Assembly (NCBI GenBank): GCA_027031765.1
Contig: JALVPN010000141.1
Location: 1 to 8,006 of the forward strand
Length of the DNA stretch: 8,006 nucleotides
From: Promethearchaeota archaeon
Lineage (GTDB): Archaea; Asgardarchaeota; Thorarchaeia; Thorarchaeales; Thorarchaeaceae
Direction of reading: 5' to 3'
Within the stretch, counting starts at the first letter, position 1. Each line of letters starts with the position of its first letter. Shown piece by piece: positions 2 to 8,006 of this stretch. The notes beneath the pieces are model-generated. The model was not told where the DNA came from. It made no database searches and saw nothing but the letters and a program-made list of their open reading frames with translations. The translations under genes and the position numbers were made by a program.

Positions 2-1150
2 CCACAGATCACTATGGATGTGCCACGGGGCGGGTTCGCATACCTCGCAGAAGGGATTGCCGGGGCTGTCAAAGTGCCCGTTGTCGCCTGCAACAGGATA
101 AACAGTGTGATGCTCGCTGAGAGACTGCTGGCACGCGGCAGGGTGCAGCTCGTGGGCATGGCACGCGGCCTCATTGCTGACCCTGCCCTCCCAGAGAAGG
201 CACGCACCGGACGTGGACGGGAGGTGCGGACATGCATCGCCTGTAACCAGGGATGTCTTGACAGGGTGTTCCTTATGAGACCCGTCACCTGCGCGATAAA
301 CCCACAGGCGGGCTTTGAGGAGGAACGCCATCTGGGGCCACCAGGCCGAGGACGTGTGGCAGTGGTCGGAGCGGGCCCGGCAGGCATGGAGGCAGCACGC
401 GTCCTTGCACTCAGGGGCTTCGAGGTCACGGTCTTTGAGGAGCACACACGACCTGGTGGCACGTTGCGCCTTGCGGCAAGGGTCCCCGGCCGCGGCGAGT
501 TCGCAGCCTACGTGGCACATATGTGGCAGGAGCTGGAACGCCTCGGTGTTGACCTCAGGACTGGAGTGTGCGCACAGCTGGCGACCATAGAGGGAGGTGG
601 GTTCGACCATGTGGTATATGCTGCAGGGACTGTTCCAACGGCGCCACCCATTGACGGTGTCGAGTTGCCCCACGTCACCACCGTACAGGAGGCACTCCGC
701 AGTGGGGCCTCCGACCTCGGCATCACCGCCGTCGTTGGTGGCGGGGCCCTTGGCTGCTACGCGGCCCTGTTCCTTGCACGGAGGGCCAAGGCTGTGCACA
801 TCTTTGAGCCCACTGCAATGTTCGGCGCAGGACTCGGCCGCACTTCCCGCTGGGTCATCCTCAAGATGCTCCGTGGACGTGGTGTCGAGTTCCACCCGAA
901 CACAGAGGTCGACTACATCGTGCACCAGTACGTTGCCGTGAAGGACAGGGAGGGCAACGCGTCGCTCTTCCCGGCAGACTCCGTTGTCCTCGCGCACCCG
1001 CCACAGCCACGCGACAGGCTCCTGGACGCACTGAGGGACAGGGGCATCGACGTCACACCGATTGGTTCTGTTACCGAGCCTATGGACCTGCTCGGATGCG
1101 TGCACGACGCGTTCCGTGTGGCCAACAGGCTGGGGACTGATGAAGAATAG
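2..1150 (+). CDS. fadH: 2,4-dienoyl-CoA reductase (FadH)-like / Old Yellow Enzyme-family flavoprotein with [4Fe-4S], FAD and NAD(P)H domains; 5'-truncated by the window edge
   Basis: The frame is open from base 2 (PQITMDVPRGGF...), so ATG 14 is internal. It has the CIACNQGCLD...VTC 4-Cys cluster motif, the VAVVGAGPAGMEAA FAD-binding Rossmann motif, GGTLRLAARVPGRGEF, a second dinucleotide motif VVGGGALG, and GAGLGRTSRW, which resembles FadH GxGLGKTTGW. Stop TAG at 1148-1150. Exact substrate cannot be determined from sequence. Confidence 0.8.
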   Translation, partial: PQITMDVPRGGFAYLAEGIAGAVKVPVVACNRINSVMLAERLLARGRVQLVGMARGLIADPALPEKARTGRGREVRTCIACNQGCLDRVFLMRPVTCAINPQAGFEEERHLGPPGRGRVAVVGAGPAGMEAARVLALRGFEVTVFEEHTRPGGTLRLAARVPGRGEFAAYVAHMWQELERLGVDLRTGVCAQLATIEGGGFDHVVYAAGTVPTAPPIDGVELPHVTTVQEALRSGASDLGITAVVGGGALGCYAALFLARRAKAVHIFEPTAMFGAGLGRTSRWVILKMLRGRGVEFHPNTEVDYIVHQYVAVKDREGNASLFPADSVVLAHPPQPRDRLLDALRDRGIDVTPIGSVTEPMDLLGCVHDAFRVANRLGTDEE

Positions 1151-1192: not shown

Positions 1193-2421
1193 CTAGGAGT
1201 CCCTGCGTCCCCACAGACCCAGCATGACCGGCAATACGACAAGGACGACCACAGACCCCGAGACTGTCAGTGCTGCTGCCACTGGTGACACCGGTGTCGC
1301 GGGTCTCGGGAAGTTGTCCACCGCGTGGCCAGGGCCCGGAATGATGTACTTGGCACGACCATCGTACGGTGCCCACATGTTCCCTGTCCGGGTGCCGTCG
1401 TCCCACCTGTTGTCCCCGCAGGCATCAAGTGCATTCCCTGCCTGGTTCCAGACGAAGACATTGTCGTAGATACTGTTGCCTGTACTGTCTGCTTCAACAG
1501 CGACCCCATAGAGGCCATTCCTGGTGAGTGTGTTCCCGACCACGGTGACGCCCGTACTCCCAAGGAGCCAGACCCCGTTCCCCGCGTTCGCGGACACGTT
1601 GTTTCCGACCACCTCGGTGTCTGCAGATGCCGCAACCCGGATGCCTGTACCGGTGTTCCCGACAACCACACTGTCGCGCACCCGGCACGCCTGTGTCGAG
1701 GTCAGGAACACCCCCGAGTGCATATATGCCGTGCCTGCCGGCGGGGACGCACCATTGCCGGTCACCTCACACCTGACCACTTCCACCCCACGTGACGAGT
1801 GCACATAGACCCCTGAAGAGGCGCTGTCCCTGACCGACGAGTCCTCGAGCACACAGTTGGCACAGCCCGTAGAGAACACACGCCATTGCCACAGCCCACG
1901 GCCGTGATGTCTGAGAGGGACACGCCCTGGGATGAGACAATGCGCACCCCGTACGTGGAGCCGTTCGCAACAAGACCGCGGACTGTACACTGGCGTGCAC
2001 GCCTGAGCACCACCCCGTCAAGACCGCCGTCCACACGCAGGCCCTCGACAAGGACATTCTGTGCGTTGACCAGTGCAAGACCAGCACCCGTGTCCTGACC
2101 CGCGACCACAATGACGCAGTCGCGCACCTTGAGGTGCAGGCTTGTGTCCGAGACCGAGATGCCGGTACCGTTGGTCTCGATCAGGAGACCCTCGATCAGA
2201 TACGGAGAGGACGGGCTCCCATCACCGGGCCACCCACCCGCTGAGAGCTCGTCGTCCGAAGCGATGACCACAGGCGCATGGGGCACCAGTCCGTCGGCCC
2301 ACCCGGCAGCCGTAGCCGCTGGAGAGGACCGGACACTGCCCCCACCAGGTTGTATGGCACACAGTATGATAAAGGAGAGTACGAGCAGGGCCAGCGGTGG
2401 CCTCAACGATACCCCGGTCAT
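1193..2421 (-). pseudogene. Secreted, C-terminally membrane-anchored parallel beta-helix (NosD/CASH-repeat) surface protein, split by a 2-nt frameshift at about 1876-1881 (true pseudogene or sequence error)
   Basis: The 5' half (ORF 1762..2487, likely start ATG 2421) has a hydrophobic signal segment (RPPLALLVLSFIILCAIQP), an HAPVVI...GWPGDGS..SPYLIEG motif and 22-aa G-V-x-x-x-x-S-x-x-x-x-L repeats. The 3' half (ORF 1193..1990) continues the repeats, then WDDG..GNMW..YDG...Y.IPG....VDNFP and a TM helix followed by basic residues (VVVLVVLPVMLGLWGRR). Each ORF looks protein-like only on its own side of about 1880. Confidence 0.8.
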
Positions 2422-2444
2422 CAACTCACCAGTGGTGGCGGCAG

Positions 2445-2457
2445 TTTTATCCTTTCG
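2445..2457 (-). promoter_or_regulatory. Candidate archaeal BRE/TATA promoter (CGAAAGG-ATAAAA) for the beta-helix gene
   Basis: This is a rare AT-rich patch in a GC-rich intergenic region. ATAAAA lies 24-29 nt upstream of ATG 2421 and is preceded by a purine-rich BRE-like CGAAAG, a spacing that fits a leaderless transcript. The match to the TATA consensus is imperfect. Confidence 0.4.
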
Positions 2458-2515
2458 CGTCGACCGAGCAGTCCCCCAGTCCACCACCTACAGGGTGACA
2501 ACCTACAGCACATAG

Positions 2516-2585: not shown

Positions 2586-2822
2586 CTACTTGACAGACTC
2601 GAAGTAGAGGGCCCACTCCCCGTCGAGGTCTTCAACTGCAATGAACCTGTGCTTGGTCTTGGCCACCTCGCGCTGCACAGACTCCACCGCCGGAGGGTGG
2701 TCTATGAGCACCCGCAGGATGTTGCCCGGCGGCGTCTTCATCAGGGCCTTCTTGGTCCTGAGCGCTGGGTATGGACAGACCTGTCCACGCACATCGAGTT
2801 CGACATCGTAGTCAATAGCCAT
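2586..2822 (-). CDS. tusA: TusA/SirA/YedF-family sulfurtransferase (sulfur carrier)
   Basis: LDVRGQVCPYPALRTKKAL carries the family CPxP active-site motif, followed by G.ILRVLIDHPPAV; about 78 aa. ATG 2822 has a strong GGAGGT SD 8 nt upstream. An alternative ATG at 2846 overlaps the upstream stop (ATGA). Confidence 0.88.
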   Translation of the reverse strand: MAIDYDVELDVRGQVCPYPALRTKKALMKTPPGNILRVLIDHPPAVESVQREVAKTKHRFIAVEDLDGEWALYFESVK

Positions 2823-2842: not shown

Positions 2843-3883
2843 TCATTGTATGGCCGACCAGAGGAGCCTGTAGGGGTCCCCCGGGTCGTCACCTGATGAT
2901 ACGATACCCATCTGTCTCAGTACGAGCAGGTGATAGAGCACCTGCCCTGTTGGCGCGTCCAGCCTTGCGGCCAGCTCGTCTGCCGTCACAGCACCGACAG
3001 ACCGCAGCTCTCCGATGACGCGCGTCCTGAGGTCCGGTGTTATGTCAGCGGGTCGATGTGAGGCCTTGCGTGCCTGCGCGGCCTCCACCCGGGACAGGTC
3101 CACATCACCTTCCTCGAAGAGACCGGCACCGATGGCCTCCGCAAGCACCTCCTGACCGCGCTCCGTCAGTGCCAGCACCGTCGTGTAGCCCTTCTGGCTG
3201 CCGGAAAAGCCACACGAGAGGTCTGCATGTACGCCAACAAAGTCGGTGCAGTGTTCACAGCTCTTCATCTTCCGCACCTTGCCGTCCCCGTCCGTGTATG
3301 TGTTCGCGGAACAGAACAGGCCGACTTTCAGGACGCGCACTCCCAGCCTGTCCTCGAGGCGTGACACACCCCGCAGCTCACACGGGAGTCCCACGACAGC
3401 CACTTGCTGGCGCCCGGACTTCAAGACACTGACCAGCTCCGTCATCACACCAGACTGTGAGTACCGTGTGCCGGCGAGGGCGAGCACCTCGGACGGGTCG
3501 GTCACAGTCCTCGCCTCCGGCGCGCGTTTCTCGCCCGCAACTGCAACAACGGCACCGACAGTGCCGGAGCGTAGCAGGTGGCCCAGGAGCGTCGTGACAA
3601 AGCCACCGTTCGATGCACGTTCGAGAACCGCCCCGTCGCGGCTCCTCAGAGAGACCGCCTGTCTGACCTCTGGGAGTCCTTCGCCCAGCTGTTCGGGGTG
3701 GGCCTGTGGGCACAGTTCGAAGCACCTGCCGCAGTGCTTCGCCCCACGGTCCAGGATACACCTCCCTGTGAGGTGTGGCACCCCATCGACCATGGTTATC
3801 GACTTGCAGGTACCGGCGCAGAGGCCACAGCCCTCGCATAGGCCGGCACTGATCACCTGTGAATGGAGCAGCTCAAAGCTCAC
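2843..3883 (-). CDS. FrhB/FdhB/FpoF-family flavoprotein (F420 hydrogenase beta-like) with an N-terminal 2x[4Fe-4S] ferredoxin domain and a C-terminal winged helix-turn-helix
   Basis: N-terminal CEGCGLCAGTC and C-x8-CGRCFELCP. FrhB-type motifs: SNGGFVTTLL, AGTRYS, VGLPCE, GLFC, CEHCTDF..HADLSCG..GS.KGYTTVLALTERG. C-terminal TADELAARLDAPTGQVLYHLLVLRQMGIV matches the ELA..L.......V..HL..L...G.V wHTH pattern. The GTG start overlaps the upstream gene by 11 nt. Confidence 0.85.
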   Translation of the reverse strand: MSFELLHSQVISAGLCEGCGLCAGTCKSITMVDGVPHLTGRCILDRGAKHCGRCFELCPQAHPEQLGEGLPEVRQAVSLRSRDGAVLERASNGGFVTTLLGHLLRSGTVGAVVAVAGEKRAPEARTVTDPSEVLALAGTRYSQSGVMTELVSVLKSGRQQVAVVGLPCELRGVSRLEDRLGVRVLKVGLFCSANTYTDGDGKVRKMKSCEHCTDFVGVHADLSCGFSGSQKGYTTVLALTERGQEVLAEAIGAGLFEEGDVDLSRVEAAQARKASHRPADITPDLRTRVIGELRSVGAVTADELAARLDAPTGQVLYHLLVLRQMGIVSSGDDPGDPYRLLWSAIQ

Positions 3884-5129
3884 ATGACCACTCCCTTATC
3901 AGACCGTTCTCGTCTGTCGTGAATGACACCTTCGTGAAATCGTCCGAGGCCTCACCTCGCACTGCACGCACCTCCACCGGCCCCGGGACAGCGTAGGCCT
4001 CATATGGTGCGTCAGAGGCCTTGACGGGCGTCCTGAAACCACCAAAGAAGACATTCGACATCACGTCGTTCCCACCAATGGCACGGGCCTGTGCCACTGC
4101 CTCGCTGTAGCGTTCAAGGTCAGGGGCACCCCTCAGCTCCCTTAGCACGCGCTGGACCTCACGGAGGCGGCCACGGAGGGCCACGGTCTCCGGTGATGGC
4201 TCAATACCGACCGCAGACTCGTAGGCCTCGACAAGGTTCAGGCACACAGAGATCCCGTCCAGCCCGTAGACCGTTGCTGCCAGCTGTGGTGCCTCCTCGA
4301 TAGGACGGCCCACCATGATGTCGGCATGGAGGCTGCCTGCGCTGGGCTGCCGGCCGGGGAGCCTGAATGCTGTCGCCAGCGTGAACCTGAAGAACGTCCC
4401 GACAACATCTACGAGCCCCTCGGTAATCCCGTCAGGGCCGTCGCCCAGCATGTCTGTGGTCCACTCTGACGCCTCTGTGTGGACATCGACATCGGCGGCG
4501 AGAGAGCCGAAGTAGCCAATCATGCTGGCAGACGGGTCTGCAACACTAGGCACGCAGCCCCTGCATGGAGCACCAAAGTCGACACACCGCTGGGCACAGT
4601 CGAGGGACACAACGCCAGAACACGGGATGCCCTGGTTGTTCATGCACTCGGACGGCGCGGGCACTGACAGCGGCCTTACAATCTGCCCCATCCGTTCAGG
4701 CTTCATAGTGCGCTCGCAGGTCTCGCAGAGCGGACGCCGCTCCCCGGGACCGCCATCGAGGGCGGCCTCAAGTTGCTCCACTGATGGGGGACAGCCGTAG
4801 ACCGCGGTGTCGACGTCGATGGTGTCGGCCAGGGCAATGATGTCCGCACCCTTCTGACGGGCAAGACCGAAGACACCCCCGGTCACTGGACACGTACCAT
4901 ACGCAACAAGGATGTCGTAGTCAACACCCTGCACACGTTGGATGTCGTCAGTAGTGGCAGCACCGGTGACGACCAGGACATCCACATGGCCCACCGACTC
5001 GGGCCCTGGCAGGGAGGGCAACAGGCTGTGAGAACGCAGCTCATAGCCGTCGAGGCCACCGACTGCGAGCGTCTGGAATGCACAGCGGTCACAGCCGCCA
5101 AGCTGTAGCACTGCAACAGACCTACTCAA
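3873..5129 (-). CDS. mvhG: MvhG-type [NiFe]-hydrogenase small subunit fused to a vestigial, non-catalytic MvhA-like large-subunit fragment
   Basis: GCDRC, YGTCP..GG and GCPP give the proximal cluster ligands. LCETC, ECMNNQGIPCSG and DCAQRCVDFGAPCRGC give the medial/distal ligands. DVVGTFFRFTL matches the MvhG C-terminal signature. The extension contains GRPIEEAP, IGG...GGF and GEASDDFTKVSFTTDENGLI. The likely start is TTG 5129, overlapping the mvhD stop; the ORF track gives GTG 5156. Confidence 0.85.
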   Translation of the reverse strand: MSRSVAVLQLGGCDRCAFQTLAVGGLDGYELRSHSLLPSLPGPESVGHVDVLVVTGAATTDDIQRVQGVDYDILVAYGTCPVTGGVFGLARQKGADIIALADTIDVDTAVYGCPPSVEQLEAALDGGPGERRPLCETCERTMKPERMGQIVRPLSVPAPSECMNNQGIPCSGVVSLDCAQRCVDFGAPCRGCVPSVADPSASMIGYFGSLAADVDVHTEASEWTTDMLGDGPDGITEGLVDVVGTFFRFTLATAFRLPGRQPSAGSLHADIMVGRPIEEAPQLAATVYGLDGISVCLNLVEAYESAVGIEPSPETVALRGRLREVQRVLRELRGAPDLERYSEAVAQARAIGGNDVMSNVFFGGFRTPVKASDAPYEAYAVPGPVEVRAVRGEASDDFTKVSFTTDENGLIREWSCEL

Positions 5130-5520
5130 CCCTTGCAGCCCCCAGACAGTCCTCACCGTCAGCCTTCGCAGCGACGTCTTCGAAGTCGCCGAGTGCCGTG
5201 TCGCCCTCCGCAGCCCTCGAGGTGTACATCGTCACACAGTCCATACTGTAGCCCATCTCTTGGAGGAACTTCTTCATGATCTTCATCTTCCGCAGCGTGA
5301 CCATGTTCGCGTTGCTGTAGTGACAGGCACCAAAGCAGCAGCCCACCACCGACACGGCCTCTGCACTGTTGTTGATGGCCGTGAGCACCTCCCGGGGGCC
5401 GACACGCCCGGCACACGGTACGGGCACGATACTTATCCGCGGGTCATACTCCATGCGCAGGACGCCGGCAGTGTTCGCAGCCCCCTGGCCACAGTGCTCG
5501 CACATGAACACAACAATCAC
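5122..5520 (-). CDS. mvhD: Hydrogenase/heterodisulfide reductase [2Fe-2S] subunit MvhD (FlpD-like)
   Basis: IVVFMCEHC..AANTAG..RMEY, VPCAGRV and VVGCCFGACHY..AN match MvhD motifs. The GTG start overlaps the hdrA stop (GTGA), with SD GGGGGTGAT 5 nt upstream. Confidence 0.92.
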   Translation of the reverse strand: MIVVFMCEHCGQGAANTAGVLRMEYDPRISIVPVPCAGRVGPREVLTAINNSAEAVSVVGCCFGACHYSNANMVTLRKMKIMKKFLQEMGYSMDCVTMYTSRAAEGDTALGDFEDVAAKADGEDCLGAARVE

Positions 5521-7520
5521 TGTGTATCACCCCCTGTTGCAGCCGCATCGGCGCTCAGCAGCCCGATGACCTCGGCACGCAGCTGGTAGTCCCTGAAGTT
5601 GCGCACCTGAATCGCACCGGTGGGGCACGCTGGCACACACAGACCGCAGCTCTTGCATGCGGCGTCGTTGACCACTGGGAGGCCGTCCTCACCGATGTTG
5701 ACTGCACCAATCGTGCACGTGGCCATGCAGGCCATGCACTTGATGCACAGTTGCGGGTCTATCTCAGCGGTGTCCATCCGCTTCTCAAGGTACCCCTTGA
5801 CCAGTGGCTGTGCAGCGGCTGAGGCAGCACCACCGGCATGGGCAACGGTCTGGGTGATGTCCTTCGGCCCCTGCACCGTGCCCGCAAGGTAGACGCCATC
5901 ACGACTGGAACGCACCGGGCCCATCTTGATGTGGAACTCCTTGGCAAAGCCCTCCTTCACGCGGAGCAGCTGCAGCTTGCCACCGAGCTTGCCGAAGCCC
6001 TTGGGTGCGACCATGCCGGCTGACAGTAGCACCAGGTCAGCCTCGATGGTCATCGGCCTGCATGCAAGTGTGTCCTCGACCTCGACCAGTATCTTCCCCG
6101 TTCTCGGGTCCGGAATGAGCTCTGCCGGCCGCCCCCGGATGAACCTGACGCCACGTTCCTGGGCCCTCTTGTAGTACTCCTCGTAGTGGAGCCCCGGGGC
6201 CCGGATGTCGATGTAGCAGAAGTAGACATCGGTGTCCGGCAGGTGCTCCTTCACCAGCGAGGCGTTCTTGAGGCCGTACATGCAGCAGACGCCCGTGCAG
6301 TACGCGTTGCCCACCTGCTCGTTGCGTGACCCGACGCACTGCACCACGACCACGGTCTTGGGCACCTTGCCGTCTGAGGGGCGGATGATCTTGCCGCCAG
6401 TGAGGGTGGTCGGTGCCATCATCCTCTCGAACTCGAGCTGAGTGATGATGTCTGGTGACTCGTAGTGGTAGGTCACGATCTCTGTGGGGTCGTACTGTTC
6501 GTAGCCCGTAGCAACAATAATCGTACCGACCTCGAACTTCCGCTTCTCCTTCTTCATGGAGAAGTCGATTGCCTCCACCGGGCAGACGGCCCTGCACGAA
6601 CCACAGTCGATACAGTGTCGCATGTCCACGGTGAACACTGATGGCAGGGCCTGTGGGAACGGCTTGTAGACCGCCTTGCGCAGGCCAAAGCCCATGTCCC
6701 ACTTGTTGGGGAGCTCCACAGGACAGACCTCTGCACAGCGCCCACAGGAGGTGCAGTTGTCATGGACGAACCGCGGCTGTGTGGTGACCTCCACTATGAA
6801 GTTACCCATCGAGCCCTCCACATCCGTGACCTCACTGAGCGTGAGCACCTCGATGTCAGGGTGGTTCATCACGCCGTTGAGCAGTGGGCTTATGGTACAC
6901 ATGGGGCACTCGTCAGTGGGGAACGTCTTGTTCAGCATGGTCATGTGACCGCCAATGGACGGCTCACGCTCCACCAGGACCACCGGGATGCCGAGCTCGG
7001 CAACGTCCATCGCAGCCCGCAGTCCCGCAACGCCACCGCCAATCACCATCACGCGCTTCGTCACCGGGATCTTGGTGGTCTCCACAGGCTCTACAAGTCT
7101 GGCTCGGGCAACGGCACCTGCCACCAGTCGTTTCGCCTTGCGGGTAGCCTCCTCCCTGCTCTCTGTCACCCACGAGTCCCACTCACGGATGTTGCACTGT
7201 ACGTGCTTGTGTGGGTTGAGGCCCTTCTCGGCAATGGCCGTGGCGAAGGTCGCCCAGTGCTGCTCTCTTGAACAGGAGGCGACCACGGTGGCTGTCAGGC
7301 CGTGCTCCTCCACGGCCCTCTTCACGAGCTCCACGCCCTGTTTTGAACACATGAACAGGTAGTCTGTGGCGTACTCCACATTGGGGAGGCCCCTAGCAAA
7401 ACGGGCCACCTCAGCCACGTCCACCTTACCGGCGATGTTCTCACCACAGTGGCATACGAAGACGCCCACCCGCGCCTCCTCGGAGGACCCGTCCGCAGCG
7501 GCAGGCCGTGCACCGGTCAC
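5517..7520 (-). CDS. hdrA: Heterodisulfide reductase flavoprotein subunit A
   Basis: RVGVFVCHCG, VIGGGVAG (FAD), SIGGHM..LNKTFPTDECPMC, an inserted ferredoxin (CTSCGRCAEVCP, CIDCGSCRAVCP), QLEFERM, QCVGSR....NAYCTGVCCMYGLKN, GVYLAGTVQGPKDI and a C-terminal ferredoxin (CIKCMACMATC, CKSCGLCVPACP). The start is reassigned from ATG 7673 to GTG 7520 because the extra 51 codons overlap hdrB and the intergenic spacer. Confidence 0.95.
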   Translation of the reverse strand: MTGARPAAADGSSEEARVGVFVCHCGENIAGKVDVAEVARFARGLPNVEYATDYLFMCSKQGVELVKRAVEEHGLTATVVASCSREQHWATFATAIAEKGLNPHKHVQCNIREWDSWVTESREEATRKAKRLVAGAVARARLVEPVETTKIPVTKRVMVIGGGVAGLRAAMDVAELGIPVVLVEREPSIGGHMTMLNKTFPTDECPMCTISPLLNGVMNHPDIEVLTLSEVTDVEGSMGNFIVEVTTQPRFVHDNCTSCGRCAEVCPVELPNKWDMGFGLRKAVYKPFPQALPSVFTVDMRHCIDCGSCRAVCPVEAIDFSMKKEKRKFEVGTIIVATGYEQYDPTEIVTYHYESPDIITQLEFERMMAPTTLTGGKIIRPSDGKVPKTVVVVQCVGSRNEQVGNAYCTGVCCMYGLKNASLVKEHLPDTDVYFCYIDIRAPGLHYEEYYKRAQERGVRFIRGRPAELIPDPRTGKILVEVEDTLACRPMTIEADLVLLSAGMVAPKGFGKLGGKLQLLRVKEGFAKEFHIKMGPVRSSRDGVYLAGTVQGPKDITQTVAHAGGAASAAAQPLVKGYLEKRMDTAEIDPQLCIKCMACMATCTIGAVNIGEDGLPVVNDAACKSCGLCVPACPTGAIQVRNFRDYQLRAEVIGLLSADAAATGGDTQ
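5526..5534 (-). promoter_or_regulatory. Shine-Dalgarno site GGGGGTGAT for mvhD
   Basis: It lies within the hdrA 3' end, 5 nt before GTG 5520. Confidence 0.65.
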
Positions 7521-7581
7521 GTCATGCGCACTGCTCTCCCCGTGGGACTCGCTCCTCTGCTCCTGCCTGTCCTTCTCCTTT

Positions 7582-8006
7582 TTATCCTTCTTCTTCGTCT
7601 TCGTCTTCGTCAAGAGGGGCCGCCTCCAGCTTGAAGTCACTTGCTGTGACCTGGTACTTGATACCGACATCATCCATCCCCATGCAGAAGGCCACGAGCT
7701 GGGAGATGTGGATCACAGGGATGTTGAAGTCGGTCCCGTACTGTTCGTTGAGTGTCTTCTGCCCGCCATCAAACTGCAGGTGACAGAAGGGGCAAATGTC
7801 GATGATAGCCTCGGCGTCGCTCTCGGCAATTGCGGCCATCTTCTCGCCCAGCATCTTCATTGACGTGTCAGCATGAGCTGCCTTGACGCCGCCACCAGCA
7901 CCGCAGCAGGCGTGCTTCCGCCGGTAGTCCACACACTCCACTCCGAGGGCCTCGAGGAAGTCCTCAAGTATGGTCGGGTCCTCGGGGTCGTCAATCTGTT
8001 TGATAT
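7582..8006 (-). CDS. hdrB: Heterodisulfide reductase subunit B, C-terminal part (CCG domain); 5'-truncated by the window edge
   Basis: The frame is open from the window end (IKQIDDPEDPTILEDFLEALGVECVDYRR). CCGAGGGV and DICPFCHLQFD are CCG-domain/non-cubane cluster motifs; IPVIHISQLVAFCMG follows. Stop TAA at 7582-7584. Confidence 0.93.
   Translation of the reverse strand, partial: IKQIDDPEDPTILEDFLEALGVECVDYRRKHACCGAGGGVKAAHADTSMKMLGEKMAAIAESDAEAIIDICPFCHLQFDGGQKTLNEQYGTDFNIPVIHISQLVAFCMGMDDVGIKYQVTASDFKLEAAPLDEDEDEEEG
7588..7611 (-). repeat. Short purine microsatellite (GACGAA)3(GAA)2 encoding the acidic tail DEDEDEEE of HdrB
   Basis: Read directly from the sequence: gac gaa gac gaa gac gaa gaa gaa, just before gga taa. 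Confidence 0.7.

Follow-up and report, generated by a model that had tools for sequence, protein, structure and literature searches.

An acidic winged helix on the FrhB-like subunit of an Asgard Hdr-type operon: a possible docking or structural module

Does a winged helix at the end of a redox enzyme subunit make that enzyme a gene regulator, or does it serve the enzyme complex itself? The question is raised by an FrhB-like protein of 346 amino acids (aa) from a Promethearchaeota archaeon, encoded at 2843-3883 on the minus strand of the stretch that we analysed (the window), which makes up the first 8,006 of the 12,027 bases of contig C141 in a 2.95 Mb, 95%-complete genome. The gene lies in a tightly packed minus-strand operon for HdrB, HdrA, an MvhD/FlpD protein, a nickel-free hydrogenase relic (below, the relic), the FrhB-like protein and TusA; the protein's relatives are labelled Candidatus Thorarchaeota (Thor relatives). 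An earlier reading of the DNA, made from the sequence alone, had proposed that the C-terminal region of the protein is a winged helix and that the protein might be a redox-sensing enzyme-regulator. We find that this C-terminal tail is a real, conserved winged helix and not a chance resemblance. The role that fits it best, to which we give about an even chance, is that of a protein-docking or structural module in the input arm of an Hdr-type complex.

A conserved winged helix at the end of the FrhB-like protein

The tail comprises residues 284-346, the last 63 of the protein, and together with the stop codon it occupies 2843..3034 of the minus strand. Codon 284 begins at base 3034 and the stop ends at 2843, which is exactly the span given by the sequence-only reading. 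The Pfam search proposed there, run on residues 270-346 alone, returned borderline ArsR-type signals (HTH_20, 24.1 bits against a cut-off of 27; HTH_5/ArsR, 21.7 against 22) and placed DprA_WH over its cut-off (25.0 against 22.9). The NCBIfam model for the ArsR/SmtB helix-turn-helix, NF033788, matched with E 9.7e-6 and 25.3 bits against a cut-off of 55. By these sequence comparisons the tail is related to the ArsR/SmtB regulators (PF01022, PF12840, NF033788), yet it stays under every ArsR threshold.

Structure prediction gave a clearer picture. AlphaFold2 modelled helices at residues 285-296, 301-308 and 312-324 and strands at 328-333 and 336-344, with a predicted local distance difference test score (pLDDT) of 84-94 in the full-length model and of 93.8 when the domain was modelled alone. 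Foldseek against the PDB matched the tail to MarR, ZitR, ArsR-like and Z-alpha winged helices with template-modelling (TM) scores of 0.8-0.87, and VIA on residues 280-346 gave Z scores of 11-12.8 to MarR/ArsR/Z-alpha domains. The tail thus has the winged helix-turn-helix fold, and the ArsR-like domain with a wing that had been read into the last ~60 residues was borne out by Pfam, AlphaFold2, Foldseek and VIA. The helices that flank this fold in ArsR homodimers are missing: three helices and the two-stranded wing take the protein to its end at residue 346, so there is no room for ArsR-type dimer helices alpha1 and alpha5. Because the linker (residues 271-290) is modelled with pLDDT 87-91 and the whole protein has a predicted TM score of 0.83, the tail is predicted to be packed fixedly on the core and not freely tethered. 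Nucleic-acid binding of the Z-alpha type was considered and rejected; the Asn and Tyr with which PKZ Z-alpha contacts Z-DNA align with Ile and Leu in the tail.

Each of the 24 full-length relatives in the alignment, whose overall identity is 45-62%, carries the tail, and residues R286, L320, L322, Y338 and W342 are invariant among them. It evolves faster than the core, with a mean column identity of 49% against 66%; no case of loss, truncation or frameshift was found in 24 short and eight long orthologues. Alignments to every solved FrhB-family chain (8riu_B, 8rja_E, Fsr, FrhB, FdhB 7bkb_E and ElpB 8rvu_E) stop at residue ~280, and the statement that characterised FrhB, FdhB and FpoF proteins do not carry this domain therefore holds for every solved homologue. 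It is on the fold models, the conservation in 24 of 24 relatives and the endpoint of the solved chains that we regard the winged helix as confirmed. The literature on FrhB with a winged helix, or with Thorarchaeota or HdrA, contained no description of the fusion. Furthermore, when the tail profile was searched globally, nothing stood out except the window protein and two fragments, and because the remaining matches were generic ArsR/HTH_20-type domains, the search gave no informative stand-alone relative.

The distribution of the tail was followed in 400 Asgard species genomes. Seven of these, all from the window's own family, encode the short form (frames of 350-393 aa, E <= 2e-23), and at least 29 further genomes have open frames of 811-839 aa, a long form that matches the tail profile at its C-terminus. 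Two of the deep-branching long orthologues of 806-839 aa (P0240, P0241) share their N-terminus with the short form, and their tail is homologous to the Thor winged helix (hhalign probability 84-95%). All eight long orthologues (loci L077, L078, L089, L091, L096, L098, L101 and L102) have a Cys within the last four tail residues; the tail of the window protein and those of most Thor relatives have none. About 30 more distant FrhB relatives adjoin HdrA-MvhD in other Asgard archaea, Archaeoglobi and Desulfobacterota, and they end in a short basic C-terminal tail without a winged helix. Neither the relic nor tusA was found near these tail-less relatives, tusA being looked for within about 8 kb. 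Only the FrhB lineage whose genes occur together with those for the relic and TusA has the tail.

Charge, promoter motif and a divergent regulator

The surface of the tail is unlike that of a typical DNA-binding winged helix. Its net charge is -1 to -7 and its isoelectric point 4.5-6.3 in 24 of 24 relatives, whereas free-standing ArsR-like matches of the same profile carry net charges of +1 to +15. The wing loop is rich in Asp and Asn, and in the window protein it reads GDDPGDP, with three Asp and no basic residue. The proposal of a redox-sensing enzyme-regulator is therefore not supported, given the acidity of the tail in every relative, its Asp/Asn wing tip and the missing ArsR dimer helices. 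The sequence-only reading had named an acidic domain that does not bind DNA as one outcome that would speak against it, and the first half of this, the acidity, is what the 24 relatives display.

The promoters of the operon do hold a candidate operator. Five Thor-type promoters have in common a near-palindromic 10-mer, AACGATTGTT, with 5 mismatches in total compared with a best of 7-10 in 60 shuffles. It lies at about 9486-9496 of C141 (about 2087-2096 of L126), at 2436-2447 of L007 and in the promoters of L002, L009 and L010, between dsrE and either the regulator gene or tusA; it precedes the dsrE start by 8-18 nucleotides (nt) in L007 and the window contig. The strict pattern AACRATYGTT had a promoter match only in L001/L007, and a simple scan for inverted repeats in 12 promoter or intergenic stretches found none in common. 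ACATTTATTTAC elements occur in pairs and resemble TATA regions, one for each of two divergent promoters.

A likelier reader of this motif is encoded next to it. Upstream, in the rest of the contig, the operon continues with HdrC and a DsrE/DsrH-like gene, followed by a divergently transcribed regulator of the Lrp/AsnC family (C141:9530-10063, plus strand, outside the window; L126:2131-2664). A regulator of this type adjoins the operon in all five loci with upstream sequence, this contig included. It has four invariant Cys (C86, C122, C137 and C138), and its recognition helix, SVATVSKRV, is almost unchanged in the four alignable organisms at an overall identity of about 54%. The front of the recognition helix of the tail (residues 312-316), on the other hand, differs in each of the five organisms that share the motif, reading TGQVL, PEKVH, PDDII, SDKVL and PSDIF. 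Because the one helix is near-invariant while the other varies, AACGATTGTT is best assigned, as far as the sequences go, to the Lrp/AsnC regulator rather than to the tail, and the promoter evidence also turns against the enzyme-regulator proposal. Transcription of the operon is most likely controlled by the divergent regulator, and since its cysteines are invariant this protein is also the better candidate for a redox or sulfur sensor. An open reading frame (ORF) called at L126:2079-2696 on the minus strand, upstream of dsrE, was discarded as an antisense artefact with odd composition and no Pfam match; the genuine gene at this site is the Lrp/AsnC gene on the opposite strand.

Docking and its alternatives

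The fold, conservation and acidity of the tail are observed, as is the conserved gene order, dsrE-hdrCBA-mvhD-[nickel-free hydrogenase relic]-frhB-wH-tusA, where frhB-wH is the FrhB-like gene with its winged helix. In the window, in the rest of the contig and in the relatives, the winged helix is fused to an electron-transfer subunit encoded together with HdrA, MvhD and HdrBC, as expected of a docking adaptor. We suggest that the tail is a protein-contact module that does not bind DNA, built into the electron-input subunit of an Asgard-specific Hdr-type complex of DsrE, HdrC, HdrB, HdrA, MvhD, the relic, FrhB-wH and TusA. Electrons would pass from the FrhB-like core through the three clusters of the relic to MvhD and HdrA, much as they do from ElpB and FdhB in Elp-Hdr and Fdh-Hdr, and the tail might hold the FrhB-like subunit against a neighbour, be it the relic, HdrA or MvhD. 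Alternatively a partner protein could land on it, just as BamI contacts the winged helix of BamF.

Two experimental precedents favour the last of the options offered by the sequence-only reading, a repurposed docking domain, which is the best fit and which we hold at even chances. BamF, the MvhD-type adaptor of the class II benzoyl-CoA reductase of Geobacter metallireducens, has a winged helix-turn-helix that interfaces with BamI in a cryo-electron microscopy structure (bioRxiv 10.64898/2026.04.10.717634). Like the window protein it is an electron-transfer adaptor of an HdrA-type bifurcating complex with a winged helix; it differs in being bacterial and of the MvhD type, whereas the window tail sits on an FrhB-like protein. 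In the PDB copy searched by sequence, neither a BamF chain nor a long MvhD turned up; the MvhD chains there are 129-141 aa long. DsrD, likewise a small winged helix tied to a redox enzyme of sulfur metabolism, was initially thought to act as a regulator, but it activates DsrAB allosterically, and in Bilophila it is joined to the C-terminal end of DsrB (PMC8794893). DsrD is Lys-rich and binds DNA non-specifically, in contrast to the window tail, which is acidic and gives no DsrD-family Pfam signal. The system described here is itself uncharacterised, but the use of a winged helix for docking within an HdrA-type complex has precedent.

Winged helices are indeed found on further subunits of this kind. 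The best non-FrhB match to the tail profile in the 400 Asgard genomes is an MvhD of 256 aa, common in one large Asgard family, in which a helical linker leads to a C-terminal ArsR-like winged helix and which is flanked by HdrA-like genes. All nine loci checked (L086:1453-2220 on the minus strand, L087, L088, L095, L097, L099, L104, L106 and L107) carry this winged helix, which hhalign matches to the tail profile with 96.9% and E 1.8e-10. Like the window tail it is an ArsR-like domain on a subunit of an Hdr-type complex; it differs in its carrier subunit and in its net charge of -3 to +4. These MvhD proteins and FrhB-wH together indicate that electron-transfer subunits of Hdr-type complexes repeatedly carry a winged helix; many unrelated ArsR-like domains in the global library reach similar bit scores, so the Hdr-associated winged helices need not share a specific origin. 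In some genomes of one large Asgard family, two frames of ~260 aa about 3.8 kb apart match the tail profile. A different arrangement is seen in the operon at L029:1715-10343 (also L017), which encodes an ArsR-like (DUF7347) winged helix fused to HdrA and MvhD, then MvhG, a [NiFe] large subunit, an FrhB fused to a TrmB-like winged helix with a coiled coil, and finally MvhD::Fer4::FrhB. Since both winged helices of L029 are basic, it is, judged by sequence, a better candidate for a DNA-binding enzyme than the window protein.

Several points weigh against docking as the role of the tail. No contact between the tail and a subunit was obtained, physical or modelled, and a prediction of the complex with the FrhB core, the relic, TusA and the tail as chains, which was uncontrolled, scored below the mark and speaks neither for nor against binding. 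The acidity of so small a domain is compatible with a local basic patch; the tail is homologous to genuine DNA-binding ArsR domains and retains the Tyr-His pair of the recognition helix; and basic winged helices resembling those of DNA binders do occur on other Asgard Hdr and hydrogenase subunits (the wH::HdrA::MvhD fusion of L029, net +6, and FrhB::TrmB-like). The operator-like motif AACGATTGTT is a real feature of the operon promoters. The co-occurrence of tail, relic and TusA may reflect single ancestry and not functional coupling, and the MvhD tails, at ~38 bits against the profile, are equalled or exceeded in score by many free-standing ArsR-like domains of the global library.

Some of these points belong to the view that the protein is a trigger enzyme, whose ArsR-like tail would bind DNA and adjust transcription of its operon to the redox state of its flavin adenine dinucleotide (FAD) and Fe-S cofactors or to its incorporation into the complex. 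Trigger enzymes such as PutA, BirA and archaeal RbkR combine enzyme and DNA-binding domain in one chain, and their DNA-binding domains are basic and dimeric with demonstrated operators; several features of the window tail argue against that model. Its ArsR/HTH_20-like sequence and MarR/ArsR-like fold, its retention over long evolutionary times and the promoter motif common to the five organisms would all suit a trigger enzyme, as would the FrhB-like protein of another archaeon with its basic TrmB-like winged helix and coiled coil and the HdrA with a basic ArsR-like N-terminus. They are set against a tail that is net negative in all 24 relatives, with an acidic wing and no dimer helices, against a helix front that varies among the very organisms that share the motif, and against an adjacent Lrp/AsnC protein that is the simpler reader of it. 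If, as in Mvh-Hdr and Elp-Hdr (PMC12350162), the input arms sit at opposite ends of the dimer, the two tails would also be poorly placed to read one palindrome. We consider a trigger enzyme unlikely, and give it the weight that we do because the tail is akin to DNA-binding domains and because the basic fusions of L017 and L029 exist. Still less likely, indeed improbable, is that the tail is left over from an ancestor and does no more than stabilise the fold, with no specific partner or ligand; the faster evolution of the tail and its variable surface residues would agree with this, whereas its integrity in all 32 short and long orthologues and its five invariant residues would not.

The tail could also be a dock for sulfur carriers, recruiting TusA and/or DsrE proteins, or acting as a DsrC-like arm, to bring protein-bound sulfane sulfur to the active site of HdrB. 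In 13 of 17 loci, from both the short and the long subfamilies, tusA lies directly 3' of frhB-wH with a gap of 15-35 nt, and the TusA encoded there is better conserved than FrhB-wH. The operon opens with DsrE/DsrH genes, and the tail-less FrhB relatives lack a nearby tusA. Docking of TusA or DsrE is plausible because the linkage to tusA is tight and because the eight long orthologues all end with the C-terminal Cys described above. Adjacency alone, however, is weak evidence; the Cys is missing from the window protein and most Thor relatives, a downstream tusA is absent at four of the 17 loci (L002, L010, L011 and L080), and a Pfam search of the FrhB-like protein gave no DsrC or DsrD signal at E<=1. 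As an account of the tail we regard the sulfur-carrier dock as quite unlikely. A bolder form of it, which we think very doubtful, is that the complex is an Asgard reductase of a new kind, acting on protein persulfides or polysulfide, in which the tail handles the carriers: the tail would dock the dedicated TusA encoded next to it, the long forms would carry sulfur on their C-terminal Cys in the manner of DsrC, and HdrB would reduce the protein-bound sulfane sulfur with electrons delivered by the FrhB-like subunit and the relic.

The FrhB-like core, its operon and related systems

The core that carries the tail, residues 1-283 (3035..3883, minus strand), consists of an 8-Cys ferredoxin-like N-terminus (residues 9-62), FrhB_N (78-147) and FrhB_C (about 160-262), and by homology it holds FAD and three [4Fe-4S] sites. 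FrhB_FdhB_N (PF04422, 55.9 bits; cut-off 22) and FrhB_FdhB_C (PF04432, 70.3 bits in two stretches; cut-off 23.3) were both detected, and VIA gave Z scores of 32.4 to 8riu_B, 29.9 to 8rja_E and 23-25 to FrhB, over residues 1..280 or 67..290. The protein is a member of the superfamily and not an FrhB or FpoF orthologue, because it falls short of the NCBIfam equivalog cut-offs (TIGR03289 for FrhB, 88.6 bits against 331.5; NF040616 for FpoF, 74.4 against 475).

Compared with 8rja_E, 8riu_B and Fsr in hidden Markov model alignments, the core is shorter by about 50 residues, which would lie between the IGLFC motif and C209. The site of this gap (residues ~192-208; window 3250-3310, minus strand) corresponds to a stretch present in all solved F420-dependent homologues, and at exactly this site the long orthologues (L077:8239-10707, L078:8289-10709) carry Fer4_20 and Pyr_redox_2, a GltD-like module of the NAD(P)H type. 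CofG, CofH and CofD were not found in the window's 95%-complete genome, in which two CofE-like genes pass the cut-off. The failed equivalogs, the shortened FrhB_C, the NAD(P)H-type insert of the orthologues and the missing CofG, CofH and CofD together make it unsafe to label the FrhB-like protein an F420 enzyme.

The relic (3873..5156, minus strand; PF01058, 46.2 bits) is a [NiFe]-hydrogenase small-subunit-like Fe-S protein with an additional C-terminal half, and its gene overlaps the frhB-like start by 11 nt; the database call is 412 aa long and starts 15 codons further in. All three cluster-binding Cys groups are present, with weak matches to VhuG, FrhG and frhA. The C-terminal half, of roughly 200 residues, has a faint frhA-like match alone and lacks the large-subunit metal motifs. 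The relic's 48 relatives are about 411-431 aa long and are all from Asgard archaea. Before it in the operon come the MvhD/FlpD-type [2Fe-2S] adaptor (5122..5520, minus strand; PF02662, 104 bits) and HdrA (5517..7673, minus strand; NCBIfam HdrA2, 756 bits over residues 68-705). The first ~65 residues of the HdrA ORF (7479-7673, minus strand) are rich in Lys, Glu and Ser and have no counterpart in relatives of 627-678 aa, and the true start is probably further in, near the VGVFVCHCG motif. HdrB is represented by its C-terminal part (7582..8004, minus strand; PF02754 CCG) where the window edge cuts the gene, the whole of which lies on the same contig and extends to C141:8478.

On the other side of the FrhB-like gene, the TusA sulfur-carrier gene (2586..2822, minus strand; PF01206, 76.7 bits) begins 21 nt after the frhB-wH stop and has GGAGG 9 nt ahead of its ATG. 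The CPxP cysteine of TusA is conserved, and identity among Thor relatives is 76-78%. Operons of the long form have the same plan, with a divergent AsnC gene followed by TusA, DsrE, DsrE, DsrH, DsrE2, HdrC, HdrB, HdrA, MvhD, the relic, FrhB-long-wH and TusA. The window's genome has seven MvhD-like and many HdrB-like genes and therefore encodes several Hdr-type complexes. A NosD/beta-helix surface protein with a hydrophobic C-terminal anchor is encoded at 1193-2487 (minus strand) in two overlapping frames (1762-2487 and 1193-1990), a split that is probably due to a frameshift or an assembly error.

This arrangement is similar to that of Elp-Hdr, where the input to HdrABC comes by way of an FrhB-family subunit, a catalytically dead scaffold and a homologue of MvhD (PMC12350162). 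In Elp-Hdr and Fdh-Hdr-Fmd (8RVU, 7BKB) the FrhB-family FAD/Fe-S subunit, ElpB or FdhB, passes electrons to MvhD and HdrABC beside such a dead scaffold, a part played by ElpA in Elp-Hdr and by the hydrogenase relic in the window system. The scaffolds differ in origin, from formate dehydrogenase in Elp-Hdr and from [NiFe] hydrogenase here, and ElpB and FdhB have a C-terminal ferredoxin domain in place of a winged helix and use F420H2. Structurally the core is closest to 8RIU_B and 8RJA_E of Ca. Ethanoperedens, together with FrhB (4CI0, 6QGR). The two Ethanoperedens chains share the N-terminal ferredoxin-like part with the window protein, whereas all three end at the equivalent of residue ~280 and hold the roughly 50 residues that are missing from it.

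Hdr-type complexes are numerous in Asgard archaea, and the present analysis defines one conserved system among them, in which the carriers DsrE and TusA are combined with HdrCBA, MvhD, the nickel-free relic of a hydrogenase and an FrhB-like subunit that ends in a winged helix. The enzyme subunit is thereby told apart from what is probably the regulator, an Lrp/AsnC protein rich in Cys that is accompanied by a conserved operator-like motif. The analysis also cautions that a winged helix on a redox enzyme need not mean a gene switch, although other Asgard fusions in the family do look DNA-binding. If the tail docks TusA or assembles the input arm, it would provide a handle on what the complex reduces, a question that bears on models of Asgard hydrogen and sulfur metabolism.

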